Below the pieces are notes generated by a model. That model was given only the letters and a program-made list of their open reading frames with translations, was not told the DNA's origin and made no database searches. Positions 1 to 64,000 of a DNA stretch of 64,000 bases are shown one piece after another; the first letter of the stretch is position 1; every line of letters starts with the position of its first letter. Source of the DNA: a bacterium (GTDB lineage Bacteria; Oederibacteriota; Muellerivitia; Muellerivitales; Muellerivitaceae); assembly GCA_035549195.1 (NCBI GenBank), contig DASZRK010000017.1:384177-448176 (forward strand), written 5' to 3'. A program made the translations under genes and the position numbers.

Positions 1-3000
1 CAGAGTTTTGCCGTGACGGTCCAGCAAACGGGGGTTTCGTTCAATGTGAACCTGGCCTGGGACGCGACTGTGAACAGCTCGAATGCGAACGTGACGAATT
101 ACAATCTAAGTCGTGGAGTCACTTCGACGAGCTTAAGTTTTTTTGCATCTGTTACATTTAGTTTTGCCCCCCCATATACCGATCCGCAGCCCCTTTCTTC
201 AGCGGGAACGACCCTGTTTTATGGAATTCGGGGTTTGGATCCGGGAGGACTAGGAACTCGGCCGGTTACCGGAATACAACTCCCTCCCAACCCGCCGACG
301 GGTGTCAGTGCGGCCCCAACCACCAGCAACGTCACCGTGAACTGGACGGCCCGTCCGGCCTCGGAGAAGGTCTCCCAATACACCATCTATCGGATAAATC
401 TGGCGGGACCCACGACGACCGTGGCGGGCTCCGCCGTTTCCACGGTGAACTCCTTCACCGATTCGACCGGCCTGTCCCGGGGAGCGACTTACGTTTATTA
501 CGTGACGGCCACCAACCCGGGCGGCGGACCGGGCATTCCCGGCGGGGAAAGCCTGGCGTCGTCCTCCGTGACCACCGGGCTGACGCCCTTGATCCCCGCC
601 GGTTTGATCGTCTCCGGGATCAATACCTCCAACGACATCACCGTTTCCTGGTCGTCGGTGACCGTGACTTCCCAAGATCCCAACGCGACCGGCGTCAATC
701 TTTTGGTCAACACGACCAATAGTTCGTCCACGGCGGTCACGACCTCCTTGGCGGCTTCGGCGGTCTCCCAGGTTTTGGCCGGCCAATCGGCGGGCACGAC
801 CTTCTTCTATTGGCTCCAGACCGTGAACCCCTTCGGGTCCGGTGCCTTGACCAGTCCGGTCAGCCAACTGACCTACCCGGGCGCTCCCGTCCTTGGTCCG
901 GTGGCCTTGGCGAATGATGGCGTTTCCCGGATCTTCAATTGGACGGCCCCGGTCCCTTCGGGTAGTGTGACCCAATACCTGATCTACCGGGAGATCCAAG
1001 GGTCGGGGAACTGGATCAACACCGCCTCCTTCCCGGCCAGCGTGGCGGGTAGTCCGGTGACCACGACCACGGCCATTAACCCGGGCCAGGTCTATGATTA
1101 CAAGATCGTGGCAGTGAACCCCACGGGCCTCGGACCCGAGTCGAATATCCGCTCCTTCAGTTCCTTGCCCTCGGCCCCGGTCAGCGTGACGGCGGCTTCG
1201 GGCATCGGTCCCTCGGCCTTGCAGGTGGACCTCGCCTGGGCCGATCCCAATGAGAGTGCCCAAGGGGTGACGGCTTATACGGTCTATCGGTCCTCCAGCA
1301 ACGCCTCCACCCTCTCCTATACGGCTTTGGTCACCGTAGGGTCCGGGACCTTCAATTATTCCGACACGACGGTGTCCGATGTGACGCCTTACTATTACTT
1401 GATCACGGCGACCAATAACGTGCCCCAGGAATCCTTCAAGTCCACGGTCAATGCCGTGGCGGTGACGGCCTATTACCAACCCAACACGCCGACTTCGCCG
1501 GCGGCGGTCCCCGCCACAGGTTCCGTGACCCTGACCTGGACGTCGGCCGTTGCCACCAGCTACCCCGTGTCCTTCTATGCCGTTTCCCGGACCGCCAACG
1601 GAGTCACCCTGGCGCCGGTGACGGTGATCAGTCCGGCCACGGTCCTCAATGACAGTGGCCTGACCAATGGGGTGACTTACGCTTATACGATCAGGACGGG
1701 GGACAACCAAGGCCACTTGAGCACGGCCACTGCGCCGGTGACAGCCGTTCCCCTGGCTCCGCCCGGAGCCCCCTTGAGTCCCAACGTGTCCGTTGGTGAC
1801 ACCCAGTTGCTCTTGACCTGGAATCCGGCTGTTCCTGGGACGCTTCCCATCGGTGCTTACAATGTTTATTCCGTTACCGCAGGGCCTACCACCACTTATG
1901 TGGGGTCCGCCCCCGCAACCCTTAATAGTTATTTGGTTACGGGACTTTCCAACTCAGGGGTTACCTATACCTACGTCGTGAACGCGGTGGACAATTCGGG
2001 TGTCACGACAGGGGTCCATGCCGGTAATTTCACGGCATTCTCGGGAAGTCCCGTCTCGGCCAAGGTCAATCCCGCCAGCGATTTGACCCTCCAGGCGGGG
2101 AACGCGCAGGTGATCTTGAATTGGACCGATTCGGTGACCATTTCAGGTGCCGCCACGGTCGTTTCTTATAGGATCGTTCAGTCCGTTGGCGGGGCCGCCT
2201 TCACGACCATCGGCACACAACTGCCGTCCGGTGCGACCGAGTCGGTCACTGAAACATCCCTGTCCAACGGGGTCAGCTACGCTTATTTCATCGTCGCGGC
2301 CTCGGCGACCACGGTGTCGGCCAACAGCGCCACGGTCTTCGGCGTCCCCTCGGCGCCGCCGACGGCCCCGGCCACCTTCCTGGCCGTCGATGGAGTGGAC
2401 CAGGTTTCCTTGTCCTGGAGTCCCTCGCCCCCCCAAGGGTCCATCACGATCTCGAACTATGTCCTGACCCAGGCGGTCTTGCCGGGGGCTCCTTCGGCCT
2501 TGGCGACCTTGGGAGGCGCTGTCACGACCTATGTGGACAATAACGCATCCAATGATGGCCAGACTGTGGTTTACGCAGTTGCGGCGGTCAATTCGAACGG
2601 CACCTTGGGGGCTTTCTCCGCTCCAGTGACCGGGTTTCCCTATCAAGCTTTTGCGCCGACCGTCACCAGCCACTTGTCCTCCTCCACGGGGGTGACCTTG
2701 AACTTTACCCCGGCCGGGTCGCCTTCTTGGCCTGTGACCGAATTCGATATCCTGAGGACCGTTGTTTCCACGGGGGTTTCCGTCCTGATCCCCGGCGGGC
2801 CGAGCTCACCGGTGACCGATACGACGGGCGTCTTGGGGACCCTTTATAGCTACAGTGTGGTCGCTCTGGACAATAAGGGGCACATGAGCGCCGCCTCCAA
2901 CGCCGTTACCGACGGTATTTCCAACCCGCCTACCGCTCCCGCGACCATCCTGCTCACGGCCGGGAGCCAGGAAGTTCTCATCGACTGGCCCGCTTCCGCT

Positions 3001-3858
3001 GCTGTGTCGGGCTCTCTGCCTGTTTCCTTCTATATTTTGGACGTCAACGGGACCCCCGTGACCCTTCCTGCCAGCCAGACCTGGTACCTGGACAGTGGGC
3101 TTACGGACCCTGCGACGGTTACGGTTTCCCTGACCGTCATAGATGCCAGCGGTCAGCAGTCGGCGGACCACAGCGTGACCCTAGCCGGGGCCGCCCCGGC
3201 CATCACAGACCCGAACAACATCAATCCGCCTACGGGGCTTACCGCCACGGCTCTGAGCACTTCCAGCGTTCAATTGGTCTGGACGGTCCCCAACGACCTG
3301 GGTTATCCGGTGACCGCCTTCAATGTCTACCGGTCAAGTTCCTTCCAGACCACCTTTGGATCGCCCCTGACCCAGGTGGCCAGTCCGCCCAGCGCCTTGG
3401 GTCCCGTGACGACTTTCACCGACGCAGGGTTGGCTCCCAGTACCACTTATTACTATGTGGTCCAGGCCGTTTATGGATTGGTCCCGTCGGGAGCGGCCTC
3501 AAATACGAGCCCCAATTCGAACCATGCTTCCGTCACGACCAATACGCCCGCGTCGGGACCACCGCCGGTCACGACCGGTGTGATGGCTTTCGACGCCAAC
3601 GTGGTCCTGCCCAACACCGGGCAGACCTTGGGGATCTACTTCATCGCGCCCCAAAGCGGGCCCGTCGAATTGGATATCTATAATATTTCGGGCAATCCCA
3701 TCCGGGCCCTTTACGCCACCGCCGTGGCCGGGACCCAGGTGAACCTAAGCTGGGATGCGAAGGACCGTAATGGCCGAACGGTCGCTTCCGGCCTTTACCT
3801 CATCGAGATCAAGGGCCCGGGCATCCACCTGGTACGGAAAGTGATCGTGGTGAAGTGA
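1..3858 (+). CDS. giant secreted surface protein of tandem fibronectin type III-like repeats with C-terminal T9SS/FlgD-Ig-type sorting domain; 5' end lies outside the window
   Basis: The 1281-aa ORF stays open to position 1 in frame. It shows repeated about 90-aa units with W/Y-x-A/T...Y-x-Y-x-V-x-A-x-N Fn3 signatures and is Thr/Ser/Val-rich. The C-terminal 60 aa (IYNISGNPIRALY...WDAKDRNGRTVASGLYLIEIKG...KVIVVK) match the type-A CTD / FlgD-Ig pattern. Confidence 0.7.
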   Translation, partial: QSFAVTVQQTGVSFNVNLAWDATVNSSNANVTNYNLSRGVTSTSLSFFASVTFSFAPPYTDPQPLSSAGTTLFYGIRGLDPGGLGTRPVTGIQLPPNPPTGVSAAPTTSNVTVNWTARPASEKVSQYTIYRINLAGPTTTVAGSAVSTVNSFTDSTGLSRGATYVYYVTATNPGGGPGIPGGESLASSSVTTGLTPLIPAGLIVSGINTSNDITVSWSSVTVTSQDPNATGVNLLVNTTNSSSTAVTTSLAASAVSQVLAGQSAGTTFFYWLQTVNPFGSGALTSPVSQLTYPGAPVLGPVALANDGVSRIFNWTAPVPSGSVTQYLIYREIQGSGNWINTASFPASVAGSPVTTTTAINPGQVYDYKIVAVNPTGLGPESNIRSFSSLPSAPVSVTAASGIGPSALQVDLAWADPNESAQGVTAYTVYRSSSNASTLSYTALVTVGSGTFNYSDTTVSDVTPYYYLITATNNVPQESFKSTVNAVAVTAYYQPNTPTSPAAVPATGSVTLTWTSAVATSYPVSFYAVSRTANGVTLAPVTVISPATVLNDSGLTNGVTYAYTIRTGDNQGHLSTATAPVTAVPLAPPGAPLSPNVSVGDTQLLLTWNPAVPGTLPIGAYNVYSVTAGPTTTYVGSAPATLNSYLVTGLSNSGVTYTYVVNAVDNSGVTTGVHAGNFTAFSGSPVSAKVNPASDLTLQAGNAQVILNWTDSVTISGAATVVSYRIVQSVGGAAFTTIGTQLPSGATESVTETSLSNGVSYAYFIVAASATTVSANSATVFGVPSAPPTAPATFLAVDGVDQVSLSWSPSPPQGSITISNYVLTQAVLPGAPSALATLGGAVTTYVDNNASNDGQTVVYAVAAVNSNGTLGAFSAPVTGFPYQAFAPTVTSHLSSSTGVTLNFTPAGSPSWPVTEFDILRTVVSTGVSVLIPGGPSSPVTDTTGVLGTLYSYSVVALDNKGHMSAASNAVTDGISNPPTAPATILLTAGSQEVLIDWPASAAVSGSLPVSFYILDVNGTPVTLPASQTWYLDSGLTDPATVTVSLTVIDASGQQSADHSVTLAGAAPAITDPNNINPPTGLTATALSTSSVQLVWTVPNDLGYPVTAFNVYRSSSFQTTFGSPLTQVASPPSALGPVTTFTDAGLAPSTTYYYVVQAVYGLVPSGAASNTSPNSNHASVTTNTPASGPPPVTTGVMAFDANVVLPNTGQTLGIYFIAPQSGPVELDIYNISGNPIRALYATAVAGTQVNLSWDAKDRNGRTVASGLYLIEIKGPGIHLVRKVIVVK

Positions 3859-14619: not shown

Positions 14620-14655
14620 TTCGAACCACAGAGGGCACAGAGATCACAGAGCAAG
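14620..14655 (+). repeat. intergenic anchor plus triple tandem 9-mer repeat (copy 1, nuoB-nuoC spacer)
   Basis: TTCGAACCAC is followed by CCACAGAGG, GCACAGAGA and TCACAGAGC. Confidence 0.7.
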
Positions 14656-50144: not shown

Positions 50145-51989
50145 TCAACAACATCCATAATCCGGCAATTCATGGCCCTTGTGGGCCTTGTCGTGGACGG
50201 CCTTGGGGTGTTTTTTCAAGGCCAGGATCTGGTACCAGCGATGGCCCGATTCCCACAGCACCACCACCGCGCAGACCATGATGATGACCGTCGCGGCCAC
50301 GTTGGCGTAGGCCTGGAAGGCCTTGTCCGGATGGGCGGCCGCCAAGGGCAGGAAGTTATCGGTGATGTTCAGCCAGCAGGCCGAGAGGGTGGTGACCGCC
50401 ACGAAAAGCATGGGCACCAAGGTCGCCCAGATGTAATGGGTGCGGCCCGAATTGATGAGGGCACTGGTGGAGGCGGCCAGGGCGATGGAGGCCAAGAGCT
50501 GGTTGGCGGTGCCGAACATGGGCCAGATGGTGGCGACCGATCCGCCCCAGATGAGCCAGGCCCAAAGGAAGACGACCAAAGCGGTGGAAAGGACGGTCCC
50601 GGGCATCCAGTTGGTGTCCTCCAGGGGCTTGTAGAAGCGCCCGAAGAATTCCTGCACCAGGAAACGCGCCACGCGGGTACCCGCGTCGATGGTGGTGAGG
50701 ATGAAGAGGGCCTCGAACATGATCATGAAATGGTAGAAGTAGCCCATGAGCCGCTCCAAGCCGGGGAAGCCGCTGAAGATCTGGGCGAAACCGAGGGCCA
50801 GGGACACGGCCCCGCCGGGCCGGCCCGCCACGTTCTCGCCGACCGCCTGGGACAGGGCCTGCAGGTTCACGGGGGTCAGTCCCAGGGCGGCGAACTTGTC
50901 GGCGGGCAGGTTGATGGCGTAGTAGTCGCCGGGGAAAAGGGCGCTGGTGGACAGGAGCGCCACGATGCCGACCAGGCCCTCCATGAGCATGGAGCCATAG
51001 CCGATCACCCGCGCGTCCGATTCCTTATCGAGCATCTTGGGGGTGGTGCCCGAGGAGACCAGGGCGTGGAAACCCGAGATGGCCCCGCAGGCGATGGTGA
51101 TGAAAACGAAGGGGAAGAGCTTGCCCGGGATGATGGGCCCTCCGCCGTCCACATAGCCGAAGGCGGGCATATGCAGGTCCGGGGCCACGACGATGATCCC
51201 CAGCACCAGCAAGGCGATGGTCCCCACCTTCATATAAGAGCTCAGGTAGTCCCGGGGAGTGAGGAGCATCCAGACGGGGAGCACGGAAGCCAGGAAACCG
51301 TAGATCGCCAGGGCCCCGATGACGCCTTCCCGGGAGAAGGTGAAGTAGGGGGCGAGGGGGGAACCGGGGATATGGTCCCCGAAGACCACGGCGAAGAAGA
51401 CCAGGGCTACCCCCACGATGCTGGCCGGGACGATGGCCGAGGGGCCTTTGCGCATCCAAAAGCCCACCAGGAAGGCGATGGGAATGGTGGCCGCGATGGA
51501 GAAGACGCCCCAGGGACTGGCCTTCAGGGCGTTCACGACGGCCATCCCCAGGCCCGCCAGGGCCAGGATGACGATGATGAAGATGGCGATGGCGCCCATC
51601 ACGGACGAGAGGGGGCTGATCTCGTGGCGGAGGATATCCACGAGCGAGCGGCCTTTCCTGCGGATGGAAGCGGCCAGGATCATGAAATCATGCACGGCGC
51701 CGGCCAGGCAGACGCCCGCCAGCAGCCAGATGAAGCTGGGCACGAAGCCGAACTGGGCGGCCAGGACCGGGCCAATGAGGGGGCCCGCCCCCGCGATAGC
51801 GGCGAAGTGGTGGCCCATCAGGACCCATTTGTTGGTGGGGTGGTAGTTGTGCCCGTCGTTCAGCAGATGGGCGGGGGTGGCGCGCCGGTCGTCGAGCACC
51901 ACCACCTTGGTGGCCAGGAAGTAGCTGTAGTAGCGGTAGGCGATGATCATGACCAGAAGGGCGGTCAGGATGAGGGGCAGGACGTTCAT
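50145..51989 (-). CDS. cstA: carbon starvation protein A (peptide/pyruvate transporter family)
   Basis: The 614-aa protein is conserved across CstA (HFAAIAGAGPLIGPVLAAQFG...). Confidence 0.88.
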   Translation of the reverse strand: MNVLPLILTALLVMIIAYRYYSYFLATKVVVLDDRRATPAHLLNDGHNYHPTNKWVLMGHHFAAIAGAGPLIGPVLAAQFGFVPSFIWLLAGVCLAGAVHDFMILAASIRRKGRSLVDILRHEISPLSSVMGAIAIFIIVILALAGLGMAVVNALKASPWGVFSIAATIPIAFLVGFWMRKGPSAIVPASIVGVALVFFAVVFGDHIPGSPLAPYFTFSREGVIGALAIYGFLASVLPVWMLLTPRDYLSSYMKVGTIALLVLGIIVVAPDLHMPAFGYVDGGGPIIPGKLFPFVFITIACGAISGFHALVSSGTTPKMLDKESDARVIGYGSMLMEGLVGIVALLSTSALFPGDYYAINLPADKFAALGLTPVNLQALSQAVGENVAGRPGGAVSLALGFAQIFSGFPGLERLMGYFYHFMIMFEALFILTTIDAGTRVARFLVQEFFGRFYKPLEDTNWMPGTVLSTALVVFLWAWLIWGGSVATIWPMFGTANQLLASIALAASTSALINSGRTHYIWATLVPMLFVAVTTLSACWLNITDNFLPLAAAHPDKAFQAYANVAATVIIMVCAVVVLWESGHRWYQILALKKHPKAVHDKAHKGHELPDYGCC

Positions 51990-52020
51990 GAAAACTCCTC
52001 TCGGGTATGGAGTAAAAGCA

Positions 52021-52056
52021 TTTTCACCACCAAGGGCACCAAGTTCACCAAGAAAA
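52021..52056 (+). repeat. intergenic anchor plus triple tandem 9-mer repeat (copy 3, cstA-MFS spacer)
   Basis: TTTTCACCAC is followed by CCACCAAGG, GCACCAAGT and TCACCAAGA. Confidence 0.65.
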
Positions 52057-52134
52057 TAGAAGAAGGGAAAAAGGCCGACTCGGGGTCCTTATCGCCGGAT
52101 CCCAAGACTTCAGGGTAAAGGAGTAGGGTGGGCC

Positions 52135-53449: not shown

Positions 53450-55603
53450 ATGGCCTTTCAAAGGAAGAAAATCCGACCTTTCCCCGCGCCCCTGGACGGG
53501 CTCCCGGCGGCTCTCTTCATCCTCGCTTTCTTCCTTTTGGGCCATCGGACCCTTTCCGGGCCGTGGCCCTGGGCCCTGGTCCTGGGCGGCATCGTCCTTC
53601 CCTTTCTTTTCCTCTTGGGGAGGGCTTCCCGGTCCGTTCCGGATGGAAAGACCCTGGTCCGGGAGGAGTTCTTTTTTCCATCGTGGGTCCCGGCCCTGCT
53701 GTTGGCCGTGGCGGTCCTCCTCCGTTTTTGGCGGTTGGATACATTGGCCGCCTGGCCCAGTTCGGATGAGGAAACGGGAGGCTACCTGGCCGAGCATTTC
53801 GGGCAAATGGGCGTCTGGAAGGGTTTTTTCGGAGGGCAGATCCCGGCACCCTGGATCTGGGCCTGCGCGGCTGTTTGGCGCATCAGCCATGATTCCTTCC
53901 TGACGACCTGGTTCCCAGCGGCCATGTCCTCACTTCTCATCCCGATCGCGGCCGTTCCGGCTTTGCGTATCTGGACCACACGTGGACAAGGGTGGTTGTT
54001 GGGATCCCTCCTGGCCGTGAGCTATTGGCCGCTTTATCTGGGCCGTACCGGCATCTGGGGGGTCTGGCTTCCGGCCTGGGAATGCATGGCCGTTTATTTC
54101 CTGGGAAAATATTCGAAGACCGTGGGACCGGACCGACGGGTTTGGGCGGTGATCCTGGGTTTTTGGACGGCGTCGGGCTATTGGACTTTCCCGTCCTTTG
54201 CCCCCGTCTCCTTGGCCCTGGTGATCGGGTTCCTCCTCGTCTCGGGCCGGTCGAAAAGAGCGGCCGAGGAAAGATCCATTTTCCTGGCGGCCGGGGCTTT
54301 GGCGGTCGTGCCCTTGGCCTGGGAATGGACGCAGGGCAGGGTCGGTGGCCATATCCTGAGCGTCGGTTTTTGGAAAGGTCCGGATGGTTCCTGGCAGGTC
54401 CTGGATTCACTCGGCGGATACCTGCGGATCCTTTTTGGGGGCGATGGGGAAGGGGGCTATTTCAATCCCCTCCTGGGGGCCCTTTTCCTGACGGGTTTGG
54501 CCGTCCTTTACCGGGCGCGCCGCGCCTGGTTGTACCTCTTCCTGGCGGTCTTTTTCCTCTTCTTGGCCCCCGGATACTTGAGCATGAACATGGAACCCTA
54601 CCGGGTGGTCTCCATCCTTCCATGGGTGCTTTGGGCGGCAGCCCTGGGTCTTCGATCCTTTTTGGTGACCTTTCCCACGGGATGGCGGGTCCCCTTGTTA
54701 TTGTCCTTCCTCGCCGTCTCGGGGGGGATGGATTGGAGGCAGCTGAACCTTCCCTACCGGAACATCGATGACCGGCCCGATCTTTTTCGTGGGACGGGAA
54801 AATCCATCGAACGATACCGGGCTTACCGGATCCTGCGGGAGCAAGTGAAGGAACAGGGTCCGGGGGTGCTGTTCCCCGATTTTTGTCCCGACGATTCCTT
54901 CGACCTTTCCTTCATCCGGGCCGCTTCCTCCCTGGGCAACGCGGGAACGTCGACGTCCGTCGGGAAGGCCCGTTGGGCCGCGGCCTTGACGAACCTCCAC
55001 TACCGGCCTTTCCTGGACGCGGGCTTTCCCGACGCCCGATGGTATGTCCTGGGGAAGGAGCGTTCCGGGGGAGGGCCGAGCGCCTTGATGCTCCTGCCCT
55101 TGGGGGAGAAGGACCGCCCCCGGATCGAAGGATGGTTGGCCGCCTCCGTCTGCTTCGACGATATCGAGAGGGCCCGTTTCCTCGCCACGGAGAACGAACC
55201 GGCTGGAAAAGTCCTTGAGGAGGCCTTCCGGCATTATCCCCTGGTGCTCCGGGATCCCTATCTGGTCTCCTGCTTTTGGGAAAGGATGGCGAGCCTGTTC
55301 TATTATTTCTTGGGCCACCCGCCCCGGGAGTTGGAGACCGCCCTCCGCCGGTCCGTCCAGGGTTATCCCGCGGCCCATCTTTATTACAGGCTCGGGGCCC
55401 TTCTTTTGAGGCTTGGGAAACTTGAGGAAGCCCGATGGGCCTTTCAGGAGGCGGAGCGGGCGCCCTTGAACCTTTGTCCTACCGCCGAGGCCCTGGCCTT
55501 GGTCGCGGAACGGGAGGCGGCGGAAGGGGAAGCCGGGGGAGAACGCCGACCGACGGGCCTTGAGGGAAAGGACCGCGGGACCTCAGGGAGCCAGGGGAAG
55601 TGA
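53450..55603 (+). CDS. GT-C-fold membrane glycosyltransferase-like protein (ArnT/PMT family 39-like) with C-terminal TPR-like region
   Basis: An N-terminal polytopic membrane domain of about 450 aa is followed by a soluble C-terminus with TPR-like helices (AHLYYRLGALLLRLGKLEEARWAFQEAER). Confidence 0.5.
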   Translation: MAFQRKKIRPFPAPLDGLPAALFILAFFLLGHRTLSGPWPWALVLGGIVLPFLFLLGRASRSVPDGKTLVREEFFFPSWVPALLLAVAVLLRFWRLDTLAAWPSSDEETGGYLAEHFGQMGVWKGFFGGQIPAPWIWACAAVWRISHDSFLTTWFPAAMSSLLIPIAAVPALRIWTTRGQGWLLGSLLAVSYWPLYLGRTGIWGVWLPAWECMAVYFLGKYSKTVGPDRRVWAVILGFWTASGYWTFPSFAPVSLALVIGFLLVSGRSKRAAEERSIFLAAGALAVVPLAWEWTQGRVGGHILSVGFWKGPDGSWQVLDSLGGYLRILFGGDGEGGYFNPLLGALFLTGLAVLYRARRAWLYLFLAVFFLFLAPGYLSMNMEPYRVVSILPWVLWAAALGLRSFLVTFPTGWRVPLLLSFLAVSGGMDWRQLNLPYRNIDDRPDLFRGTGKSIERYRAYRILREQVKEQGPGVLFPDFCPDDSFDLSFIRAASSLGNAGTSTSVGKARWAAALTNLHYRPFLDAGFPDARWYVLGKERSGGGPSALMLLPLGEKDRPRIEGWLAASVCFDDIERARFLATENEPAGKVLEEAFRHYPLVLRDPYLVSCFWERMASLFYYFLGHPPRELETALRRSVQGYPAAHLYYRLGALLLRLGKLEEARWAFQEAERAPLNLCPTAEALALVAEREAAEGEAGGERRPTGLEGKDRGTSGSQGK

Positions 55604-57304
55604 AAGGGCGAAACAGGTGCCCTTGCCCTTCTCGGTCTCCACGGCGATCGACCCGCCCTGCACATCCAGGAAGCGTTTGACGATGTAAAGGCCGATCCCG
55701 GCGCCGGCCCGGCCCGCCTCCTCGCCCAGGATGCGTTTCTGGCTGAACATCTGTTTCATGGCGGCCTCGCTGATGCCCGGGCCCGTGTCGGCGACCCTCA
55801 GTGTCCCCCAGGGGGCCTTCACTTCCACCCGCAGGGTGATGGAGCCCCTATCGGTGAATTTCACGGCGTTGCTGATGAGGTTCCGCAGGGCCTCCACCGT
55901 CTTGTCCATGTCGGCCATGACGAAGACGTCCTTCTCCAGTCCCTCCAGCCGCAGTTCCAATCCCTTGCGGGAGATGATCTCCTTGTAGTCCCGCAGGCCG
56001 AACTCCACGATGGTGGACCAACTGGCCCGCTCCAGCGAGGGGTCCAGCAGTCCCCGCTGGATCTTGGAGAGGTTCAGGAAGTCGCTGATGAGACGGAAGT
56101 TGGCCACGCCGATCTCCCGCATGTCCATGAGGTAATCCTTCTGGGAAGCCGACAACTCCCCGGCCAGGCCGTCCAACAGGTTCTCGATGTAGCCGTTGAT
56201 CTGCGCCACCGGCGTCTTCAACTGATGGGACGCCACCGAGATGAGGCTTTGTTTCATCTCCTCCACCTGCTTGCGCTCCGTGATGTCGCTGAAGACCGCC
56301 AGGGCGAAGTTCACGTTGCCCTTCAGGTCGGTGACGGGCGTGCCCCAGACCTGGATGGGAATGATCCGTCCATCGGGATGATGGATCTCCATATCCTCGA
56401 CCGAACTACGCTCTCCGTTAAGGGCCCGGACCACCGGGCTCTTTTCATTGGGATAGGGATCCTCGGTCCCTGCCACGAAGGAGGAATAAATGGTGGAAAG
56501 GTCCTTGGATTCGGAGAAGGCCACGATGCCCTTGCCCAGGAGCTCCCGGGCCTTCTGGTTGGCGTAGAAGGGTTTCCCCTTGGCGTCCAGCACGAAGATG
56601 CCCAGGGGGATGGCCTCCAGGAACTGGAAAAGGCGGTGTTCGTTGAGCTGGAGCAACTCCTGGGCGGCTTCGCGTTTCTTGATCTCCTGGCCGATGGCGA
56701 AGAGGGCGAGGATGGCGAAAAGGGTGGCGGCCACACCGCCCGCCACAACGATCATCGAGGTCATGTGGGAGGAGCTCGTCTCCGAATCCCTCCGTTTTAT
56801 GAGGAGGTTCTCTTCCTCCGCGATCGTCTGGGCGGTCAAGTGGTCGATGGGGTCCATCGCCTGGACGGGATGCAGAGCCTTGAATTGCTCCACCGCCTTT
56901 TCAAAATGGCCGGAGAGGCAAAGGCTCCGGTTGGCCTCGAAGTTCTGCAGACGCTGTTGCAAAAGGGGCATGAGGGTCTCGAAACGTTGCTTTTCGCTGG
57001 GGTTATCCTCGGTCATCTTTTGGAGTTCCAAGGCGTCCTTATAGGCCAGGTTCATCTCGGACTCGGCCAATTGAAGGAGCGTGGAGTGGTCCGAGAGAAG
57101 ATAGGCCCGGTAATCCGCCTGGGCCCGTTTGAGGTTGATCTCAAAGGCCTCGATCTTGGAGATGACGTTCTCCGAATGGTCCACCCTACGGTCGTCGTCC
57201 AACATGCGGTTGAGGCTTGAATAACAAAGGGTCCCAATGGCAAAGATGAAGACCAGGAGGATGCCGAAGCCGGCGTAAAGTTTCAGCCGAAGCGTGGGTC
57301 TCAA
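55583..57304 (-). CDS. sensor histidine kinase with periplasmic CHASE3 domain and PAS domain
   Basis: TTG start after AAGGA. The N-terminal TM is followed by a CHASE3-like region, then a second TM, PAS, HisKA (ASHQLKTP) and HATPase_c (GTGLGLYIVKRFLDVQGGSIAVETEKGKGTCF). Confidence 0.85.
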   Translation of the reverse strand: MRPTLRLKLYAGFGILLVFIFAIGTLCYSSLNRMLDDDRRVDHSENVISKIEAFEINLKRAQADYRAYLLSDHSTLLQLAESEMNLAYKDALELQKMTEDNPSEKQRFETLMPLLQQRLQNFEANRSLCLSGHFEKAVEQFKALHPVQAMDPIDHLTAQTIAEEENLLIKRRDSETSSSHMTSMIVVAGGVAATLFAILALFAIGQEIKKREAAQELLQLNEHRLFQFLEAIPLGIFVLDAKGKPFYANQKARELLGKGIVAFSESKDLSTIYSSFVAGTEDPYPNEKSPVVRALNGERSSVEDMEIHHPDGRIIPIQVWGTPVTDLKGNVNFALAVFSDITERKQVEEMKQSLISVASHQLKTPVAQINGYIENLLDGLAGELSASQKDYLMDMREIGVANFRLISDFLNLSKIQRGLLDPSLERASWSTIVEFGLRDYKEIISRKGLELRLEGLEKDVFVMADMDKTVEALRNLISNAVKFTDRGSITLRVEVKAPWGTLRVADTGPGISEAAMKQMFSQKRILGEEAGRAGAGIGLYIVKRFLDVQGGSIAVETEKGKGTCFALSLPLAP

Positions 57305-57335
57305 GGCGGGTCCTTCGGGGGATAAAGAGGCGTCC

Positions 57336-58223
57336 TTATCCTACCCCGGAATGGGCATCCCCAAAAGGAACCAGGTCGCGGCCGCAATCCTTGCAGGAAC
57401 CTTCCAGGGACCGGTACGCCACCTCGCAACGGGGGCAATAGCTCCGGTCCTGGGGGCCCGTGGGGGCCATCGGCGCCCATAAGCCGACGGTTTCAAGGCC
57501 GCATTCCTGAAGCCACTGAACGATCGTCCGTTCCTCCCCTTCCCGGTCCTTTTCCAGAAGGAGGGGCACCTCCGCCACGCCCGCCAGGGCCGGTGGATAG
57601 CGAAGTTCCAGCACCCAACGCCGGGCCCAACCCTCGAAGTCCCGGTCCGCCAAAAGCAGTTTCCCCGCCACCAGTGGATGGAAATGATCGAAGAGCGGGT
57701 CGGCCAGGAGGTCCATGGCCCGGGAGGAGAGCCAGGGTGAGACGGCGCAAAGAAGGGTCTTTCGGATGCGCGCCCATTTCTTTTCCGGATAGAGCTTTCC
57801 GAACCCACGCCAGAAGACGACGACCAGGGTCAGGTGAACGAAGAGGAAGGCGAAGGCCCAGAGGCCCCAGGCCAGCCAGAAACCTTTCCGCAGGACGAAC
57901 AGCAGGAAGGCGGTGGCGCCCAGCCCGATCAGGATGCGGGACCAGGACTTAAGGGTCCGGTCGAAGGCCAGGAAATCCTGGTAGCGGTCCTTGGCCTCGG
58001 GGAGGGATAGCCGGGAGGGACCGTTGGGAACAGGCGAGGACGGTGGGAAACGATAGCAGAAGCCCGCCGGCCAAGGGTTGCGCGAGCGCAGGCCCGGTCC
58101 CCGGTGAAGGGTGAAGGCCTTGCCCCAACCCAGCAGGATCCAGCCCGCCTCCCCGGCATAGACCAGGCACTCGGCCAGATAGATGGCCGACGCGAGCACG
58201 ACGAAGATCTGGAAATGGCTCAT
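57336..58223 (-). CDS. hypothetical membrane protein with C-terminal zinc-ribbon (CPRC...CKDC)
   Basis: About 4 TM helices are followed by a cytoplasmic region ending ...CPRCEVAYRSLEGSCKDCGRDLVPF. Confidence 0.5.
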   Translation of the reverse strand: MSHFQIFVVLASAIYLAECLVYAGEAGWILLGWGKAFTLHRGPGLRSRNPWPAGFCYRFPPSSPVPNGPSRLSLPEAKDRYQDFLAFDRTLKSWSRILIGLGATAFLLFVLRKGFWLAWGLWAFAFLFVHLTLVVVFWRGFGKLYPEKKWARIRKTLLCAVSPWLSSRAMDLLADPLFDHFHPLVAGKLLLADRDFEGWARRWVLELRYPPALAGVAEVPLLLEKDREGEERTIVQWLQECGLETVGLWAPMAPTGPQDRSYCPRCEVAYRSLEGSCKDCGRDLVPFGDAHSGVG

Positions 58224-58258
58224 GGCCGGCCTGGAGGAAAAATTCTAAGGATCCGGAC

Positions 58259-59131
58259 CTAGACCTGGGGCGGCGGGGGCGGCGGGTTTTGGTCGTTATC
58301 CTTGCCCTTGCCGCCGCCGAAAATCTTCTTGAAGAAGGCCCCGACCGCGGCCAAGGCCACGATCAGCAGCTTGCCCAGCTTGGCGACCAGTAGGGCGAAG
58401 AAGCCGCCCAGCTTGCCCAGGAGCCCCGTCTTGGCGGCGACCGCCCCGGCGGCGCCCACGACCAGCGCGGCCAGCCCGAACTCGGCCACCTTGTCCCCGG
58501 TCTTCCACTCGGAGTATTTGTTGCCGCTGGTGTAATCGAAGCCATCCAGCGTATGGTTCAAGGGACCCAGCATGGCCTGCCAATCCTCCCCATGGGGCAC
58601 CACGATGACCCGCATGACGCCCTTGCGGCCCAGGATGCGGGTGTTGAAGTTGACGAATTGCTGGCCCTTTTCCTCGATCACTTCGGCCCATTCCAGGCGC
58701 TGGGTGTCCGGGTTGTAATGGGGCTCTTCGGCCCATTTGACCAGGTGCATCTCCTCCCAACCCTTTTTCTTGCGTTCCTCATTGGCGTCCTTCTCGTTCT
58801 CGACCATCTGCTTCCACATGGCGTCCGGGTCCAATTTCTCGTTGGCGGCATCCTTGATGTAGCCCGTGTCCTCGAACGTGAAGAGCGCCATGAAGCCGTT
58901 CTCATCCTTGGTGTAGAGGACACCCAGCTCGTCGCCGGAATAGAGGTTGTGGGTCTTTTCCATGAATTCCTTCATGTCGTCCTTGGGGAAGAACTCGTAG
59001 CCTTCCGGAACCTTGATATCGGCCATGTCGCCGATCCGGCCGGTGGCGGGACCTTGCAGGGGATGGAGTTCGGCGCGCAGGGGGGCGGAAAGGAGGAAGC
59101 AAAGGGATAGGGCGGCCAGGAAGGATTTCAT
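58259..59131 (-). CDS. membrane-anchored protein, DUF2167-like (signal peptide, soluble domain, C-terminal TM helices)
   Basis: Start is ATG at 59131 after AAAGG. Signal peptide MKSFLAALSLCFLLSAPLRA. The C-terminal hydrophobic helices GLAALVVGAAGAVAAK...LLIVALAAVGAFF are followed by a poly-Pro tail. The family call is tentative. Confidence 0.45.
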   Translation of the reverse strand: MKSFLAALSLCFLLSAPLRAELHPLQGPATGRIGDMADIKVPEGYEFFPKDDMKEFMEKTHNLYSGDELGVLYTKDENGFMALFTFEDTGYIKDAANEKLDPDAMWKQMVENEKDANEERKKKGWEEMHLVKWAEEPHYNPDTQRLEWAEVIEEKGQQFVNFNTRILGRKGVMRVIVVPHGEDWQAMLGPLNHTLDGFDYTSGNKYSEWKTGDKVAEFGLAALVVGAAGAVAAKTGLLGKLGGFFALLVAKLGKLLIVALAAVGAFFKKIFGGGKGKDNDQNPPPPPPQV

Positions 59132-59210
59132 GGAATACCTTTCGAATGGGATGGAGCCAGTATAGGAAGGGAGCTTTTCGGGCTCCAAGGAAATAAGCCG
59201 CCCGGGAAGG

Positions 59211-60959
59211 TTAAATCTGGATGATCTTGCGCTTGTGGTCCAGGAAATCCCGGAGCACATATTGGGTCAGCTTCTCGGGGGCGGGGAAGATGAGCCGGCC
59301 CTGGTTGATCTTATGCATGGCCTCCAGGAAATCCCCCTCGCCGAAATAGCCCATATCCACCTCGTTGCCCATCATGAAGGTGTTGATGGTGATGCCCTCG
59401 TCGGTCACGGCCCGGACTTCCCGCAAGGTCCTTTGATAGGTCCGTTCGTTGGGCGGATAGGTGAGGTAAAGATGGGAGCCCTCGTAAAAAGCGGTGGGGG
59501 CGCCGTCGGTGATCAAGAGGATGCTCTTGTTCCTCGTTTCAGCGTTGGCCAAGAGCACCCGGGCTAGTTCCAGGCCCTTCTGCAAGTTGGTGAAATGCTG
59601 GGGGATGGAATCCCGGTCCCGTTGGGTGAGTCCTTTGGAGAAATCGACCCGCATGTTGACCGCGCCGCCCATGATGGAAATGGGCTTGGGGGCGAGCTCG
59701 GGGATGGCCCCCACGGGGATCTGTTTGGCGAAGGTGGAGAAGCACACGAAGTAGAGCTTGTCCTCGGGATATTCGGTGTGGATGAGGGAATCCAGCGCCA
59801 GGGCCAGCTTCTTGGTGTTGTAGAAACGCCCATAGCGGCTCATGGAGCCCGACTGGTCGATCAGCATGACGATGGCCGAGGCCGCGGCGCCCTTGGTCTG
59901 GTGGACCTGGAAATCCCGGCTGTCGATCCTGATGCGGCCGTCCTTCATCCTCTCCGGTGTGCCCATCTGGCGGATGGCGGAATTGAGCAGGCTCCCGGAC
60001 AGGTCCAGCGAGGTCAGGGAATCGCCGAACTCATAGGGGCGGGTGGGGGTCATCTCCACGTTGCCGTCGCCGGTGTAGGTGGCGTGGTGGCGGCCCATCC
60101 CGTCGGTGAAGAGGCGGGAGAAAACCTCCCTTAGGGTCTTCTCGCCGATCTTACGGGCGGCCCCGGGCGTGATCTTATAAATGTCGTTGTCCTCGTCGTA
60201 GTCCACGTCGCCGGTGGCCTGGATGGCTTCGTTGAACTGCTTCTTGAGCTCGTCCCGTTTCGCCTGGAGCGCCTGGGCCGCTTCCTCGCCCAGGATGTCC
60301 TTGAGGGTCTCCGCTTCCATATTGAAGAGATCGCCGTGCTCCAGGGCGTCCTTCAACTGCTGTTCCAACCGGTCCAGGGTCTCCAGGCGTTCCTTCAGGC
60401 GGCGGGACTCCTCGGGGTTCGGGTCCTGTTGGCCGGTGAAGGTGTGTTTTTGGTAAAGGTCCTCCAGCTCGGCCATCTTTTGCCAGAGCAGGTTCAGTTC
60501 TTGGAGCAGGTCCCGGGCGATCTCGGCGTTCTTGTTCTTGAGGCGGGACAACTGCCAGTCCAGGTTGTAGAGCTGGGAAGGGTTTCGGCTGTCCAGGGCC
60601 TCGTCCAGGCGTTTGGCGATGTCCTTATCCTTGAGGCGCGCGACCTGTTGTTCCAGCTCGGCGGATTTGCGGCGGATCTCCTGCTCGAGCCGGTTGAGGA
60701 CGTTGTCCAACCGGTATTTCTCGAGGATCTCTTTCTTCAGGCGCTCGATCTCCTTCAGGTAGCCCTCCACCAGGTCGGTGAGGCCGCTGGTCTTGAGGAA
60801 CTGGTTGTAGGGGATGCCTTTCTCCTGCAGGTGGCGCAGGGCCTCGTCGAAGGTGACGTGGTAGCGCATCATGAGCTCTTTCACCGCGTTCACCAGGTCC
60901 TGCATGGTGAAGGGCGGTTCCTCGGGCTCGTGCCATTCGGAATAGTCGTGGGTTATCAA
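59211..60959 (-). CDS. von Willebrand factor type A (vWA) domain protein with N-terminal coiled-coil region
   Basis: TTG start after AAGGG. About 380 aa rich in heptad-like EK/LQ repeats precede a C-terminal vWA domain carrying the MIDAS motif DQSGSMS ... T ... LITDG. Confidence 0.75.
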   Translation of the reverse strand: MITHDYSEWHEPEEPPFTMQDLVNAVKELMMRYHVTFDEALRHLQEKGIPYNQFLKTSGLTDLVEGYLKEIERLKKEILEKYRLDNVLNRLEQEIRRKSAELEQQVARLKDKDIAKRLDEALDSRNPSQLYNLDWQLSRLKNKNAEIARDLLQELNLLWQKMAELEDLYQKHTFTGQQDPNPEESRRLKERLETLDRLEQQLKDALEHGDLFNMEAETLKDILGEEAAQALQAKRDELKKQFNEAIQATGDVDYDEDNDIYKITPGAARKIGEKTLREVFSRLFTDGMGRHHATYTGDGNVEMTPTRPYEFGDSLTSLDLSGSLLNSAIRQMGTPERMKDGRIRIDSRDFQVHQTKGAAASAIVMLIDQSGSMSRYGRFYNTKKLALALDSLIHTEYPEDKLYFVCFSTFAKQIPVGAIPELAPKPISIMGGAVNMRVDFSKGLTQRDRDSIPQHFTNLQKGLELARVLLANAETRNKSILLITDGAPTAFYEGSHLYLTYPPNERTYQRTLREVRAVTDEGITINTFMMGNEVDMGYFGEGDFLEAMHKINQGRLIFPAPEKLTQYVLRDFLDHKRKIIQI

Positions 60960-60963
60960 GTTA

Positions 60964-61104
60964 AGGCCCTTTCACCACAGAGGGCACAGAGATCGCAGAG
61001 GAAACCATTTTGAGTGAAAGAATTTGATCGTATCGTCCGTTTAGAAAAGGAGTTTGTGAACAAAAGAAGGCCTTTCTCTGTGCTCTCCGTGCTCTCTGTG
61101 GTTA
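60964..61104. repeat. inverted pair of anchor plus triple 9-mer repeats flanking a 70-bp spacer between the ChlI-like ATPase and vWA genes
   Basis: At 60971-61001, TTCACCAC is followed by CCACAGAGG GCACAGAGA TCGCAGAGG. The reverse complement of 61071-61102 is CCACAGAGA GCACGGAGA GCACAGAGA. The two arms match at 22 of 27 positions and the right arm abuts the ATPase stop codon. Confidence 0.7.
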
Positions 61105-62529
61105 GACAGGTTTCTTCTTCGGGGCGGCGGAAGTCTGGTAGTCCATCATCTCCCCCACCTTGTTGCGGGTGAGCTTGCCTGACAAATGCAGGCCTTCCAG
61201 CACGAATTCCACGCAGGAAGCCTGATAGGTCTCGCTCTTGCCCTCGGCCAGGTGCTGGACCGGCTCCCAGATCTGCGGCATCTGGGAGATCATCTTCTTG
61301 TAGTCGCCCGCGGGGGTCAGGTCCGAAACCCGGATGTGCTTCTCACCCGACATGTCGGGGATGGTCAGCTCCAGATGGTCCTTCTCCATGTGCTCCTTGA
61401 AGACGGTCAGGATGGCCTTATCCATGATCTTCTCGAAGACCTGCCGCTCGGTGACGGTCTCTTCCCGGAACGGGTCCAGGTCGATCTTGCCCGCGGAGGA
61501 GGTATAGAGATAGTTCAGGTCCGAGATGCGGGGGACGGCCTCGGCCTCGCCCAAGACCACCGCCCGGCGGCGGGAATTGGCCACCATGGTCTCGAAGTTG
61601 GCGATGGAAAGACGGGCCGAAACCCCCGATTTCTGGTTCACATAGGGGCTCTTACGCGCTTCCATGGTGATCTGCTCGATGATCTCTTCCATAAAGGCGG
61701 GGACCACCAGCTTCGCGTCCCCATCCTTCGGCATGCGGGCTTCCTGATGGATGACCTGAAGGCCCAGTTCCCGGGTCAAGGGGTAGTGGGTCCTGATCTC
61801 GGCCCCGATGCGGTCCTTCAACTGGGTGATGATCTTGCCCGCGCGGGTGTATTCCTCGGGGTTCGCGGTGAAAAGGAGCAACAGGTCCAGGTCGAAGCGG
61901 ATGGGATAACCCCGCACCTGGATGTCGCGTTCTTCCAGGATATTGAAGAGGGCGACCTGCACCAGGTATTCCAGGTCGGGTAGTTCGTTCACGGCGAAGA
62001 TGCCACGGTTCATGCGGGGGATGAGGCCGAAATGGATGGCTTCCTCGCTCGCCAGCGGGTTCCCGGCGGCCACCTTGGCCGGGTCCAGGTCACCGATCAA
62101 GTCGGCGATCTTGGTGCCGGGCGAAAGGCGCTCCCCGTAGCGGGCCTCACGGCCGATCCAGGCGATCTCCAGGTTCTCCCCGTGCTCGGCCAGCTTCTTA
62201 CGGCAGGAGGCGCAGATGGGGTGGTAAGGGTGGTCGTGGATCTCGCATCCCTTCACGACCGGGATCTCCTCGTCCAGGAAGTTCACCAGTGAGCGCATGA
62301 GGCGGCTCTTGGCCTGTCCCTTTTCCCCCAAAAGTACGATGTCGTGGTGGGAAAGGACGGCGTTGATGAGCTGGGGAACGACGGTCTCCTCGAAGCCGTG
62401 GATGCCGGGGAAGAGGGGTTCGCCCTTCTTCAGCTTGGCCAGGAGGTTCGCCTCGATCTCTTCCTTGACCGTGCGGTCGGGGTAGCCGGAGGCGCGGAGT
62501 TCCTTCAAATTAATGGGCTTGGAGGGCAT
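61102..62529 (-). CDS. AAA+ ATPase of the Mg-chelatase ChlI/BchI-like family
   Basis: Walker A is LLGEKGQAKS. A Cys-containing insertion VVKGCEIHDHPYHPICASCRKK mirrors the ChlI insertion. GLIPRMNRGIFAVNELPDL is Walker B and LFTANPEE...LKDRIG is sensor II, both aligning with ChlI blocks. Confidence 0.7.
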   Translation of the reverse strand: MPSKPINLKELRASGYPDRTVKEEIEANLLAKLKKGEPLFPGIHGFEETVVPQLINAVLSHHDIVLLGEKGQAKSRLMRSLVNFLDEEIPVVKGCEIHDHPYHPICASCRKKLAEHGENLEIAWIGREARYGERLSPGTKIADLIGDLDPAKVAAGNPLASEEAIHFGLIPRMNRGIFAVNELPDLEYLVQVALFNILEERDIQVRGYPIRFDLDLLLLFTANPEEYTRAGKIITQLKDRIGAEIRTHYPLTRELGLQVIHQEARMPKDGDAKLVVPAFMEEIIEQITMEARKSPYVNQKSGVSARLSIANFETMVANSRRRAVVLGEAEAVPRISDLNYLYTSSAGKIDLDPFREETVTERQVFEKIMDKAILTVFKEHMEKDHLELTIPDMSGEKHIRVSDLTPAGDYKKMISQMPQIWEPVQHLAEGKSETYQASCVEFVLEGLHLSGKLTRNKVGEMMDYQTSAAPKKKPV

Positions 62530-62597
62530 GGTCTTTCCTTGTTTTGGGAACTAAGCCCTAATCTTACGGTCCCCAAAAGAAAGGAAGCAAGGGCCGC

Positions 62598-64000
62598 TTA
62601 GGGAGCGACGCCCACGGCCCGGTAGACGCGCCAGATACCCGTCAAGGAAGGATGGGCGTTGGAGGGGCAATCGGTGAAATGGCGGAGCCGCAAGCCCCCG
62701 GGCGCCAAAAGATCCACTCCCTGGAGGGCCCGGGTTTCAAGAAGCAGGAGGTTCCCGGATGGCAACGCTTTCGCGGTCCCTTGACCCTGGAGGTAGTAAT
62801 GGTGGAAAGCCCCGCTGAAATAGGAGTAGCCGATGGGGATCCGGTCCCGGCCTTTGGAGACCAACCGCCCGAGGGCGGTCTCGATGCGATGGTAGGGGTC
62901 GTCCGGTACCCCTTCACGGGACCCCAGGCCCAGTTCGGGATGGGAGCGCTCGAGCTGGTCCCAGCCCCAGGTCTCGAAAAGAGTGAAGGAAGGGATCATC
63001 CGGACATCCGGCCGGCGTCCTTCCACGAGCTGGAGGTAGTAAAGCGGGAAATAATCCTCGTCGCCCTCGGCGAAGAAAAGGGAGGCCTTGGGAAGGGAAC
63101 GCAGGAGGTTCGTCCCGTAGTCGTAACGCAAGGTCTGCTTCGTTTCATTCATGAGCCGATAGGCCGTGGCGCCGTTGAAAAGGACCAACAAAGCGAAGAA
63201 CCAAAGGATGTGGGGTTTGGTCGGGCCTTCCTTCAAGCGATCCAGGATCCCAAGTCCCATGGCCGCCAATAAACAGACCAAGGCGTCCGCCGGTAAGAGG
63301 TAATTGTCCATCAGCCAGGCGTGAGGGACGTTCAGTGGGACCCAAAGGGCGACCGTGAAGACGGCCAGCAATGGGACCAAGGGCAAGAACACCAGCACCA
63401 GGATCTTTCGCGCACCCGCTCTCCCGGCCCCAAGGATCGCTAGGACCCCGAAGGCAAGGGCGAGCGGGCCCGGATTGTTCCAGAAATGGACAGGTATATA
63501 AGAGACCTGTTCCTTCCAGATCCTGGTCCAGACCGACCCCAAGACCGCCCACGAGCCGGTGCCGCGCGCGATATCCCAAAGAGAACCCAAGAGGCCGGGT
63601 TCGCGGCCGAAGGTGTAGCCCCGAAAAATGCATTTAAGGAACCGGTCCCAATGGTCGGGATGCCCCAGGTCGGGCAAGGGATCCAAGTGCGCGCGCAATG
63701 GGAGCAGGAGCAAAGGGGAAAGCCCTAGGAACAGGAAAGGCGGTCCGTACGGCGCCCATTCCTTGGGAAGGGCTGTCCTGTCGGCGGGGCCCAAGGGCCA
63801 AAAGAAGACCGCCAGCAGGGGCAGGAAGAGCACTTGGGTCTCCCAATGGTTCGCCAAACCCATGCCGGACAACAGGCAGGCGAGCAGGAACCCCTTGGGG
63901 CCCGGGACGGACAGGCGAACATAGAGGATCCCCAAGAGCAGGACCTCTTGGATCAAATAAATACCCCCTTTGGCGCCTAAGGCTTTTTCCCATTGGGTAT
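62598..64000 (-). CDS. polytopic membrane protein with soluble C-terminal domain (GT-C/DUF2723-like); N-terminus probably beyond window end
   Basis: The ORF has no in-frame stop between the TTG at 63956 and the window edge. Many TM helices are followed by a soluble domain of about 170 aa. Confidence 0.4.
   Translation of the reverse strand, partial: TQWEKALGAKGGIYLIQEVLLLGILYVRLSVPGPKGFLLACLLSGMGLANHWETQVLFLPLLAVFFWPLGPADRTALPKEWAPYGPPFLFLGLSPLLLLPLRAHLDPLPDLGHPDHWDRFLKCIFRGYTFGREPGLLGSLWDIARGTGSWAVLGSVWTRIWKEQVSYIPVHFWNNPGPLALAFGVLAILGAGRAGARKILVLVFLPLVPLLAVFTVALWVPLNVPHAWLMDNYLLPADALVCLLAAMGLGILDRLKEGPTKPHILWFFALLVLFNGATAYRLMNETKQTLRYDYGTNLLRSLPKASLFFAEGDEDYFPLYYLQLVEGRRPDVRMIPSFTLFETWGWDQLERSHPELGLGSREGVPDDPYHRIETALGRLVSKGRDRIPIGYSYFSGAFHHYYLQGQGTAKALPSGNLLLLETRALQGVDLLAPGGLRLRHFTDCPSNAHPSLTGIWRVYRAVGVAP

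Follow-up and report, generated by a model that had tools for sequence, protein, structure and literature searches.

A co-directional six-gene stretch in a Muellerivitaceae genome probably combines four separate units, one of them an AAA+/vWA pair of the Rv0958/Rv0959 family

We analyzed a 64,000-nucleotide (nt) stretch of bacterial DNA (here called the window; contig DASZRK010000017.1, positions 384,177 to 448,176), focusing on six minus-strand genes at window positions 55583–64000. In the direction of reading, these genes encode a TMEM260-like GT-C glycosyltransferase, a ChlI-branch AAA+ ATPase, a protein with a von Willebrand factor A (vWA) domain, a DUF2167 protein, a membrane protein with a C-terminal zinc ribbon (ZnR), and a CHASE3-PAS sensor histidine kinase. 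An initial annotation, made from the sequence, had treated the six genes as one system, possibly a signal-gated remodelling or conflict module. Our analysis points instead to four separate units (the GT-C gene, the AAA+/vWA pair, a DUF2167-ZnR envelope cassette, and the kinase) that occur together only in a shallow clade resembling candidate division FCPU426, with the ATPase and vWA genes forming a pair of the Rv0958/Rv0959 family. We assign this reading a probability of about 75%.

All six co-directional open reading frames (ORFs) of the initial annotation were found, separated, from the kinase gene upward, by spacers of 31, 35, 79, 142, and 68 nt. The domain calls made for them (GT-C, ChlI-like AAA+, vWA with a metal-ion-dependent adhesion site [MIDAS], DUF2167, zinc ribbon, and CHASE3-PAS kinase) were borne out by Pfam, by relatives in the PDB, and by fold. 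One correction concerns the first gene, of which the window holds only the 3' part (62598–64000, minus strand; ORF in the window 62598–63956 and beyond): the gene is 564 aa at full length, and its 5' end lies ~290 nt past the end of the window. The full-length gene (locus L081, CAZXBC010000002.1, 8238–9932) carries PF11028, the TMEM260-like (DUF2723) family (E-value 2.5e-17, 63.6 bits against a cutoff of 24.2), together with PF28495. By these profile matches the protein is a TMEM260-like family member, with its predicted catalytic N-terminus outside the window.

The ATPase gene (61102–62529, minus strand; 475 aa) is followed by a hairpin-bearing spacer (60960–61101, minus strand) and the vWA gene (59211–60959, minus strand; 582 aa). 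The DUF2167 gene (58259–59131, minus strand) encodes a 290-aa protein with a signal peptide, two C-terminal transmembrane helices, and a poly-Pro tail, and matches PF09935 with an E-value of 4.6e-62 (209.8 bits, cutoff 25). Its longest ORF extends to 59260; the start at MKSF agrees with the called gene. The ZnR gene (57336–58223, minus strand), defined by its ORF and by the family alignment, encodes a polytopic membrane protein of 295 aa with a C4 zinc ribbon at its end. The last gene (55583–57304, minus strand) encodes a 573-aa sensor kinase with a CHASE3-transmembrane-PAS-HisKA-HATPase_c layout, in which CHASE3 (54.8 bits), HisKA (41.5 bits), HATPase_c (76.3 bits), and PAS all score above their Pfam cutoffs. 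The kinase had been described as lacking a cognate response regulator nearby. This held: searching all reading frames of the window (64 kb) with CheY and PhoB detected no receiver domain, and the genes called within 10 kb include no response regulator. A promoter and terminator scan of 55000–64000 gave counts no higher than in shuffled sequence, so the scan does not inform the transcript structure.

The ATPase contains the following AAA+ motifs: Walker A GEKGQAKS (residues 68–75), Walker B FAVNE (residues 177–182, in which N181 aligns with the Walker B Asp of ChlI), sensor-1 TANP, the Arg-finger region QLKDRIG, and sensor-2 GVSAR. The sensor-1 Asn, the Arg-finger region, and the sensor-2 Arg are kept in the family. 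The protein reaches no Pfam threshold. Among solved structures it is closest to ChlI and BchI (E-value 1e-9 with the single sequence, 7.6e-12 with a profile against the PDB), which places it, by sequence, on the ChlI branch of AAA+ proteins. Assignment to the MoxR class was rejected (AAA_5 at 19.3 bits against a cutoff of 22; the PDB profile search returned ChlI and LonB and no MoxR). More than 8000 homologues were found, with identities of 50–55% in Planctomycetota and Leptospiraceae and 61–65% in Nitrospinota and in sequences labelled Nitrosotenuis. The ChlI-like character and the Walker A motif GEKGQAKS given in the initial annotation stand. The 'Cys-rich insertion' that it also reported does not hold as a family feature: the cysteines are present in many members and missing in others, and a family zinc site at this position was discarded because they are not conserved.

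The vWA protein consists of a conserved N-terminal helical region, long coiled coils (about 200 residues), the Rv0959_3rd region at its centre, and a vWA domain at its C-terminus. The MIDAS residues D368-x-S370-x-S372, T457, and D485 are invariant. In the AlphaFold model (mean pLDDT, the predicted local distance difference test score, of 74), the C-terminal domain matches 55 vWA structures in the PDB at E-values of 1e-3 or less, with NorD among the top matches; a sequence-profile search of the PDB returned only the vWA domains of pilus adhesins, at E-values of at least 3e-4. By its conserved residues and modelled fold, the protein has a complete MIDAS vWA domain. The initial annotation had noted that this protein lacks the AAA-like N-domain of ChlD, and the N-terminal part is indeed a helical coiled coil. 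An insertion of ~27 residues (PKPISIMGGAVNMRVDFSKGLTQRDRDS) interrupts the vWA domain at residues ~424–452. Forms from FCPU426, Planctomycetota, and Nitrospinota carry it; the Thermomicrobium and Tsukamurella proteins do not. By analogy with NorD, it could be a pore-inserting 'finger'. The vWA family is large, comprising 614 clusters (at 50% identity) at an E-value of 1e-30 or less and 1911 at 1e-10 or less.

All six proteins served as tblastn queries against 80 loci from species-representative genomes, each with a gene for an ATPase relative. Eleven of these loci come from the same lineage as the window (labelled candidate division FCPU426, Firestonebacteria, or 'bacterium'; ATPase 81–86% identical). 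To count how often the pair is linked, we applied a hidden Markov model of the vWA protein to the 44 loci flanked by 6 kb or more of sequence on each side. Of these, 31 have a same-strand vWA gene downstream, immediately next to the ATPase gene in 24 cases; among the same-lineage loci, all that extend far enough have the vWA gene directly downstream of the ATPase gene. The pair was seen across candidate division FCPU426, Planctomycetota, Thermomicrobium, and Actinomycetota. All-against-all clustering of the ORFs from the 80 loci gave no third family shared across phyla. The recurrent neighbours were shadow ORFs and unrelated housekeeping genes (SDR, DUF1559, IlvD, DUF1552, DinB, HAD, peroxiredoxin, CstA), and two further contexts from Nitrospinota or related lineages contained nothing coherent beside the pair. 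The AAA+/vWA pair is the sole unit of the stretch that is conserved across phyla.

The identity of this pair emerged from three kinds of comparison. Precomputed Pfam matches assign PF27098 (Rv0959_3rd) to the vWA protein and to almost every homologue. The pair also turned up in four genera when annotated records of plasmids and chromids were searched by tblastn independently of motif patterns; their ATPases are 48% (Thermomicrobium roseum), 46% (Nonomuraea), 44% (Tsukamurella, over 95% of the length), and 42% (Nocardia) identical to that of the window. In the Thermomicrobium and Tsukamurella records, a gene named 'sigma 54-interacting transcriptional regulator' (the ATPase) is followed by one named 'VWA domain-containing protein'. 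The Tsukamurella VWA protein aligns with the window family over residues 156–580 (hhalign probability 100%, E-value 3e-39), and the Thermomicrobium protein does so with an E-value of 6e-66. The Tsukamurella gene order is purN-purH, then the ATPase gene, then the VWA gene. We take purN and purH to be Rv0956 and Rv0957, and the arrangement in M. tuberculosis to be Rv0956-Rv0957-Rv0958-Rv0959. The orthologue of Rv0958 in M. marinum is 1392 bp, a size in line with the window ATPase. Judged by sequence, and through the positional orthologue in Tsukamurella, the ATPase is orthologous to Rv0958, and the pair is a member of the catalogued, functionally orphan Rv0958/Rv0959 family of Mycobacterium tuberculosis. 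The initial annotation had matched the stretch to no named system. That is right insofar as the pair falls outside every characterised AAA+/vWA pathway, but the pair itself is catalogued.

The remaining genes follow a different pattern. Not one of the 80 representative loci has DUF2167 or ZnR. The kinase occurs in two of the 11 same-lineage loci (L001 and L003), with homologues also in L085, L087, and L088. A GT-C homologue lies upstream of the ATPase gene in nine of the 11 same-lineage loci (L006 and L009 lack it). The unrelated thyX gene provides a control, being kept upstream in nine of these 11 loci, as often as the GT-C gene; synteny at such depth is therefore no evidence for shared function. 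The genes 3' of the vWA gene vary between loci. L001, whose vWA protein is 84% identical to that of the window, passes straight from the vWA gene to the kinase gene, and L085 (81%) has the DUF2167-ZnR cassette and a YbjQ gene in between, so that DUF2167-ZnR is present or absent as a unit between equally diverged relatives. The YbjQ_1 (PF01906) gene lies between ZnR and kinase genes at 10899–11228 in L084 and 11148–11510 in L085; in the window this site is the 31-nt gap. The kinase is a neighbour of the pair, not a conserved partner.

DUF2167 and ZnR do have a stable association with each other. Only 15 ZnR homologues were found. Their invariant residues are the zinc-ribbon cysteines C263, C266, C277, and C280 (CPRC...CKDC) and the motif S162-P163...R168..D171...H182-P183. 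ZnR adjoins DUF2167 wherever the upstream gene is known (L084, L085, L087, L088, and the contigs of P0252, P0253, and P0255, with L091 and L092 included among the loci). Three distant ZnR homologues, 24–27% identical to the window protein in the alignment, are each encoded directly 3' of DUF2167, and in these three contigs no ATPase, vWA, or kinase gene lies beside the two genes, whose neighbours are unrelated. Since DUF2167 and ZnR stand alone in the distant contigs, they form an independent two-gene cassette of their own, with DUF2167 first.

The four units could nevertheless be parts of one operon-encoded system, as first proposed, in which an extracytoplasmic signal sensed by the CHASE3 domain gates an AAA+/vWA remodelling or conflict module acting together with the three membrane proteins. 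All six genes lie on the same strand with gaps of 31–142 nt and no strong terminators between them, the kinase has no response regulator nearby, and the order TMEM260-ATPase-vWA-DUF2167-ZnR-(YbjQ)-kinase is kept in L084 and L085, with DUF2167-ZnR-kinase in L087 and L088. The conservation analysis argues the other way. DUF2167 and ZnR are missing from 80 of 80 representative loci and the kinase from nine of the 11 same-lineage loci, the two closest relatives alone keep the full order, whole modules are gained or lost between equally diverged genomes, the cassette and the pair each occur alone elsewhere (the pair across phyla), and thyX is as syntenic as the GT-C gene. The initial annotation had itself held that its proposal would fall if the genes proved unlinked in related genomes, and for the six-gene set this is what we saw. 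Its idea of a conflict module likewise found no meaningful match among the six proteins in PADLOC 2023, a collection that covers not every proposed conflict system: five proteins gave no match, and a defence role was set aside. The sixth protein, the kinase, gave a weak match of its HATPase_c region (residues 460–558) to the candidate model PDC-M43B (E-value 1.7e-5, 22 bits), which we read as a generic ATPase-domain match. A single six-gene system is thus largely refuted, and we regard it as very unlikely. A narrower proposal, that the pair was recruited within the shallow FCPU426-like clade into a lineage-specific envelope module with the TMEM260-like enzyme, DUF2167/ZnR, and the orphan kinase, we consider quite unlikely. 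It is unlikely, too, that the pair works in this lineage with the adjacent TMEM260-like GT-C protein, for instance in the assembly or remodelling of this enzyme or of the glycoproteins it acts on. The GT-C gene is directly upstream and co-directional in nine of 11 same-lineage loci and in L084 and L085, a second GT-C-like membrane protein of 717 aa recurs near the pair in six loci, and one Nitrospinota-like locus has a GT2 glycosyltransferase gene directly upstream of the ATPase gene; but no GT-C gene lies beside the pair outside the lineage, co-occurrence across phyla is absent, thyX is equally syntenic, and L006 and L009 dispense with the GT-C gene. The 717-aa polytopic protein, which has a C-terminal TPR-like region, is encoded in the window at 53450–55603 (plus strand) and converges on the kinase gene with a 21-nt overlap. 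Its homologues near the pair in six same-lineage loci stand in either orientation, it reaches no Pfam family threshold, and it may be a second GT-C-like enzyme.

Database names suggest two further roles for the pair. Under the first, the ATPase and vWA proteins would be the I and D subunits of a genuine magnesium or cobalt chelatase: source databases call the protein 'magnesium chelatase', the closest solved relatives are ChlI and BchI, and there are weak matches to the NCBIfam cobaltochelatase, BchI-ChlI, and BchD-ChlD models. We judge this highly improbable. The scores fall 10- to 20-fold under the curated cutoffs, the vWA partner has coiled coils in place of the ChlD AAA-like N-domain, and the family occurs in non-phototrophs (Planctomycetota, Mycobacteriales) with no tetrapyrrole genes as neighbours. 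The initial annotation saw no ChlH gene; we found no ChlH, BchH, or CobN gene within 10 kb on either side and no fitting ORF of ChlH or CobN size elsewhere in the window, where the sole ORF above 1000 aa encodes an fn3 protein. That ORF (13–3858, plus strand; 1281 aa) specifies three fibronectin type III domains, with a FlgD-Ig-like domain at the C-terminus. Three specific chelatase assignments were rejected. The ATPase scored 37.5 bits against a cutoff of 466.95 for the magnesium-chelatase I subunit (BchI/ChlI, TIGR02030); the vWA protein, whose N-terminal 250 residues are helical coiled coil, gave no match to the D subunit (BchD/ChlD, TIGR02031); and for cobaltochelatase (TIGR02442; cutoff 779.45) the ATPase and vWA proteins scored 47.9 and 36 bits. 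Under the second role, the ATPase would be a transcription factor that receives a signal from the kinase. The Prokaryotic Genome Annotation Pipeline name 'sigma 54-interacting transcriptional regulator' on the Thermomicrobium and Tsukamurella orthologues suggests as much, there is a weak Sigma54_activat match of 17.6 bits, and an affinity purification-mass spectrometry screen recovered the M. smegmatis orthologue together with RNA polymerase (PMC7092591). The Sigma54_activat score is under the cutoff of 20.2, however, no receiver or DNA-binding domain was detected, the tagged M. smegmatis protein recovered no DNA, and the kinase is unlinked to the pair. Actinobacteria are not known to possess sigma-54, which we also count against this role, and we find it barely credible.

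Several observations weigh against our own reading of four units with an Rv0958/Rv0959-type pair at their centre. In 13 of the 44 well-flanked loci no vWA gene is nearby, and one Nitrospinota genome has it on a separate contig among unrelated genes, so that operon linkage does not hold throughout the family. ATPase motif patterns served to retrieve the 80 loci and Planctomycetota dominate among them, so the frequencies are indicative only. L084 and L085, the nearest relatives, retain the six-gene order, and a functional link restricted to this lineage is conceivable. The ATPase model has a pLDDT below 50 at residues 132–248, the conserved core, and its fold search gave weak matches (MoxR 2r44 at an E-value of 1.4e-3, with RavA and MCM no better; TM-score ~0.3), so that this search supports the AAA+ class only. 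The literature searched contained no functional study of the Rv0958/Rv0959 family, only transposon and quantitative trait locus lists and the RNA-polymerase purification screen, and no substrate, stoichiometry, or ATPase activity is reported in it for any member. The catalytic motifs themselves also deviate from those of a typical motor. Walker B is Asn-Glu, not Asp-Glu, in every sequence examined from every phylum, including the actinobacterial and Thermomicrobium forms, and an Ala precedes the Walker A lysine in most members (Tsukamurella has the canonical Gly). These substitutions suggest that hydrolysis may be slow, or that the protein is a nucleotide-dependent switch rather than a motor. 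The invariant Asn-Glu may accordingly mark a mechanistically distinct, slow or switch-like ChlI-type branch with a housekeeping target, a weaker proposal that we hold likelier than recruitment of the pair into an envelope module.

For the pair itself, a mechanism can be proposed by analogy with ChlI-ChlD, CobS-CobT, and NorQ-NorD. ChlID combines a hexameric ring with one vWA adaptor and behaves in the same way as NorQD and CobST. In NorQD, the hexamer engages a single vWA adaptor, ATP pulls or twists the adaptor, and the MIDAS holds the target (PMC13036017); a ring-plus-single-adaptor mechanism of a like kind is described for CobST (bioRxiv 10.64898/2026.07.21.739949). The window ATPase would similarly form a hexameric ring on which the vWA protein docks as a single adaptor. 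The MIDAS site of the adaptor would grip an acidic residue of the target protein, and ATP turnover in the ring would pass through the helical linker of the adaptor to remodel the target, for example by cofactor insertion or by assembly or disassembly of a complex. Given the very strong conservation of the ATPase and the lack of any third gene kept beside the two, the target would be a widespread housekeeping protein encoded elsewhere, and not a tetrapyrrole. Taken alone, we give this ring-plus-adaptor mechanism even odds.

The 142-nt spacer between the ATPase and vWA genes folds as a long imperfect hairpin (-43.4 kcal/mol, z-score -2.9), in keeping with the repeat hairpin that the initial annotation had placed in the longest gap. 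Its arms, at ~61069–61101 and 60975–61006, are two inverted copies of (CACNNAGNN)x3 with a 9-nt period. The repeat occurs four times in the window (14627–14651, 52028–52052, and 60976–61000 on the plus strand; 61076–61100 on the minus strand) against none expected from 100 shuffles. The copies at 14627 and 52028 are apparently single arms in intergenic DNA. Hairpins with other heptads are found at the same ATPase-vWA site in L084, L003 (CGCGAAG), L004 (CACAAAG), and L007 and L010 (CGCCAAG and CGCAAAG), and L001, L005, L006, L008, L009, and L011 have short spacers without a hairpin. From its sequence, the hairpin looks like a REP-like (repetitive extragenic palindromic) element of species-specific sequence that settled between two cistrons, and its absence from many relatives indicates that the element is dispensable. 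Where present, it may, speculatively, stabilise the upstream ATPase message or attenuate read-through, either of which would favour an excess of the ATPase ring over the adaptor. A plus-strand ORF at 50172–52118 (648 aa; rich in Gly, Asp, His, and Gln) lies opposite a CstA gene called on the same contig and almost certainly represents a shadow ORF instead of a gene.

The Rv0958/Rv0959-type pair is very widespread and strongly conserved, from Mycobacteriales to Planctomycetota and with archaeal-labelled homologues as well, and the labels it bears in databases, 'magnesium chelatase' or 'sigma-54-interacting regulator', are wrong. Identifying its target would add a case to the few understood AAA+/vWA remodellers and correct a common annotation error. 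The family includes the M. tuberculosis pair, and the window adds sequence features only as a handle on function; recruitment into an envelope module, were it true, would be the first physiological handle on this orphan family. The DUF2167-ZnR cassette is a small new linkage for a domain of unknown function with essentially no literature.

Among known AAA+ systems with a vWA-type partner, PrkA-YhbH-SpoVR resembles the pair in joining an AAA+-like protein to a vWA-like partner, and the MIDAS region gives a weak YhbH match of 17.2 bits. That score stands against a cutoff of 468, and the PrkA kinase domain and a SpoVR gene are absent. The MoxR-class pairs (NorQ-NorD, CbbQ-CbbO, RavA-ViaA, CoxD-CoxE, CobS-CobT) likewise combine a motor with a MIDAS adaptor, and the vWA domain has NorD among its best structural matches; the window ATPase, in contrast, falls on the ChlI branch by sequence, and no nor, cbb, cox, or cobN gene is adjacent. 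With ChlI/BchI and ChlD/BchD the pair shares the insertion after the Walker A helix and a partner with a C-terminal MIDAS vWA domain. It differs from ChlI in having Asn-Glu where the ChlI Walker B has Asp-Glu, and in an extra conserved C-terminal region of ~190 aa in the ATPase. The Rv0958/Rv0959 pair is annotated as a 'possible magnesium chelatase' with a conserved hypothetical VWA protein, and the old COG label for an Rv0959-type protein was 'uncharacterized protein with vWA domain'. Compared with the Rv0959 type, the window vWA protein is shorter (582 aa versus about 660–700) and differs in its N-terminal helical region; compared with the Thermomicrobium and actinobacterial forms, its vWA domain has the additional ~27 aa; and Walker A reads GEKGQAKS in the window ATPase against GERGQGKT in Tsukamurella. 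The window pair and Rv0958/Rv0959 have in common an ATPase gene upstream of a VWA gene, the MIDAS, and the Asn-Glu of Walker B.

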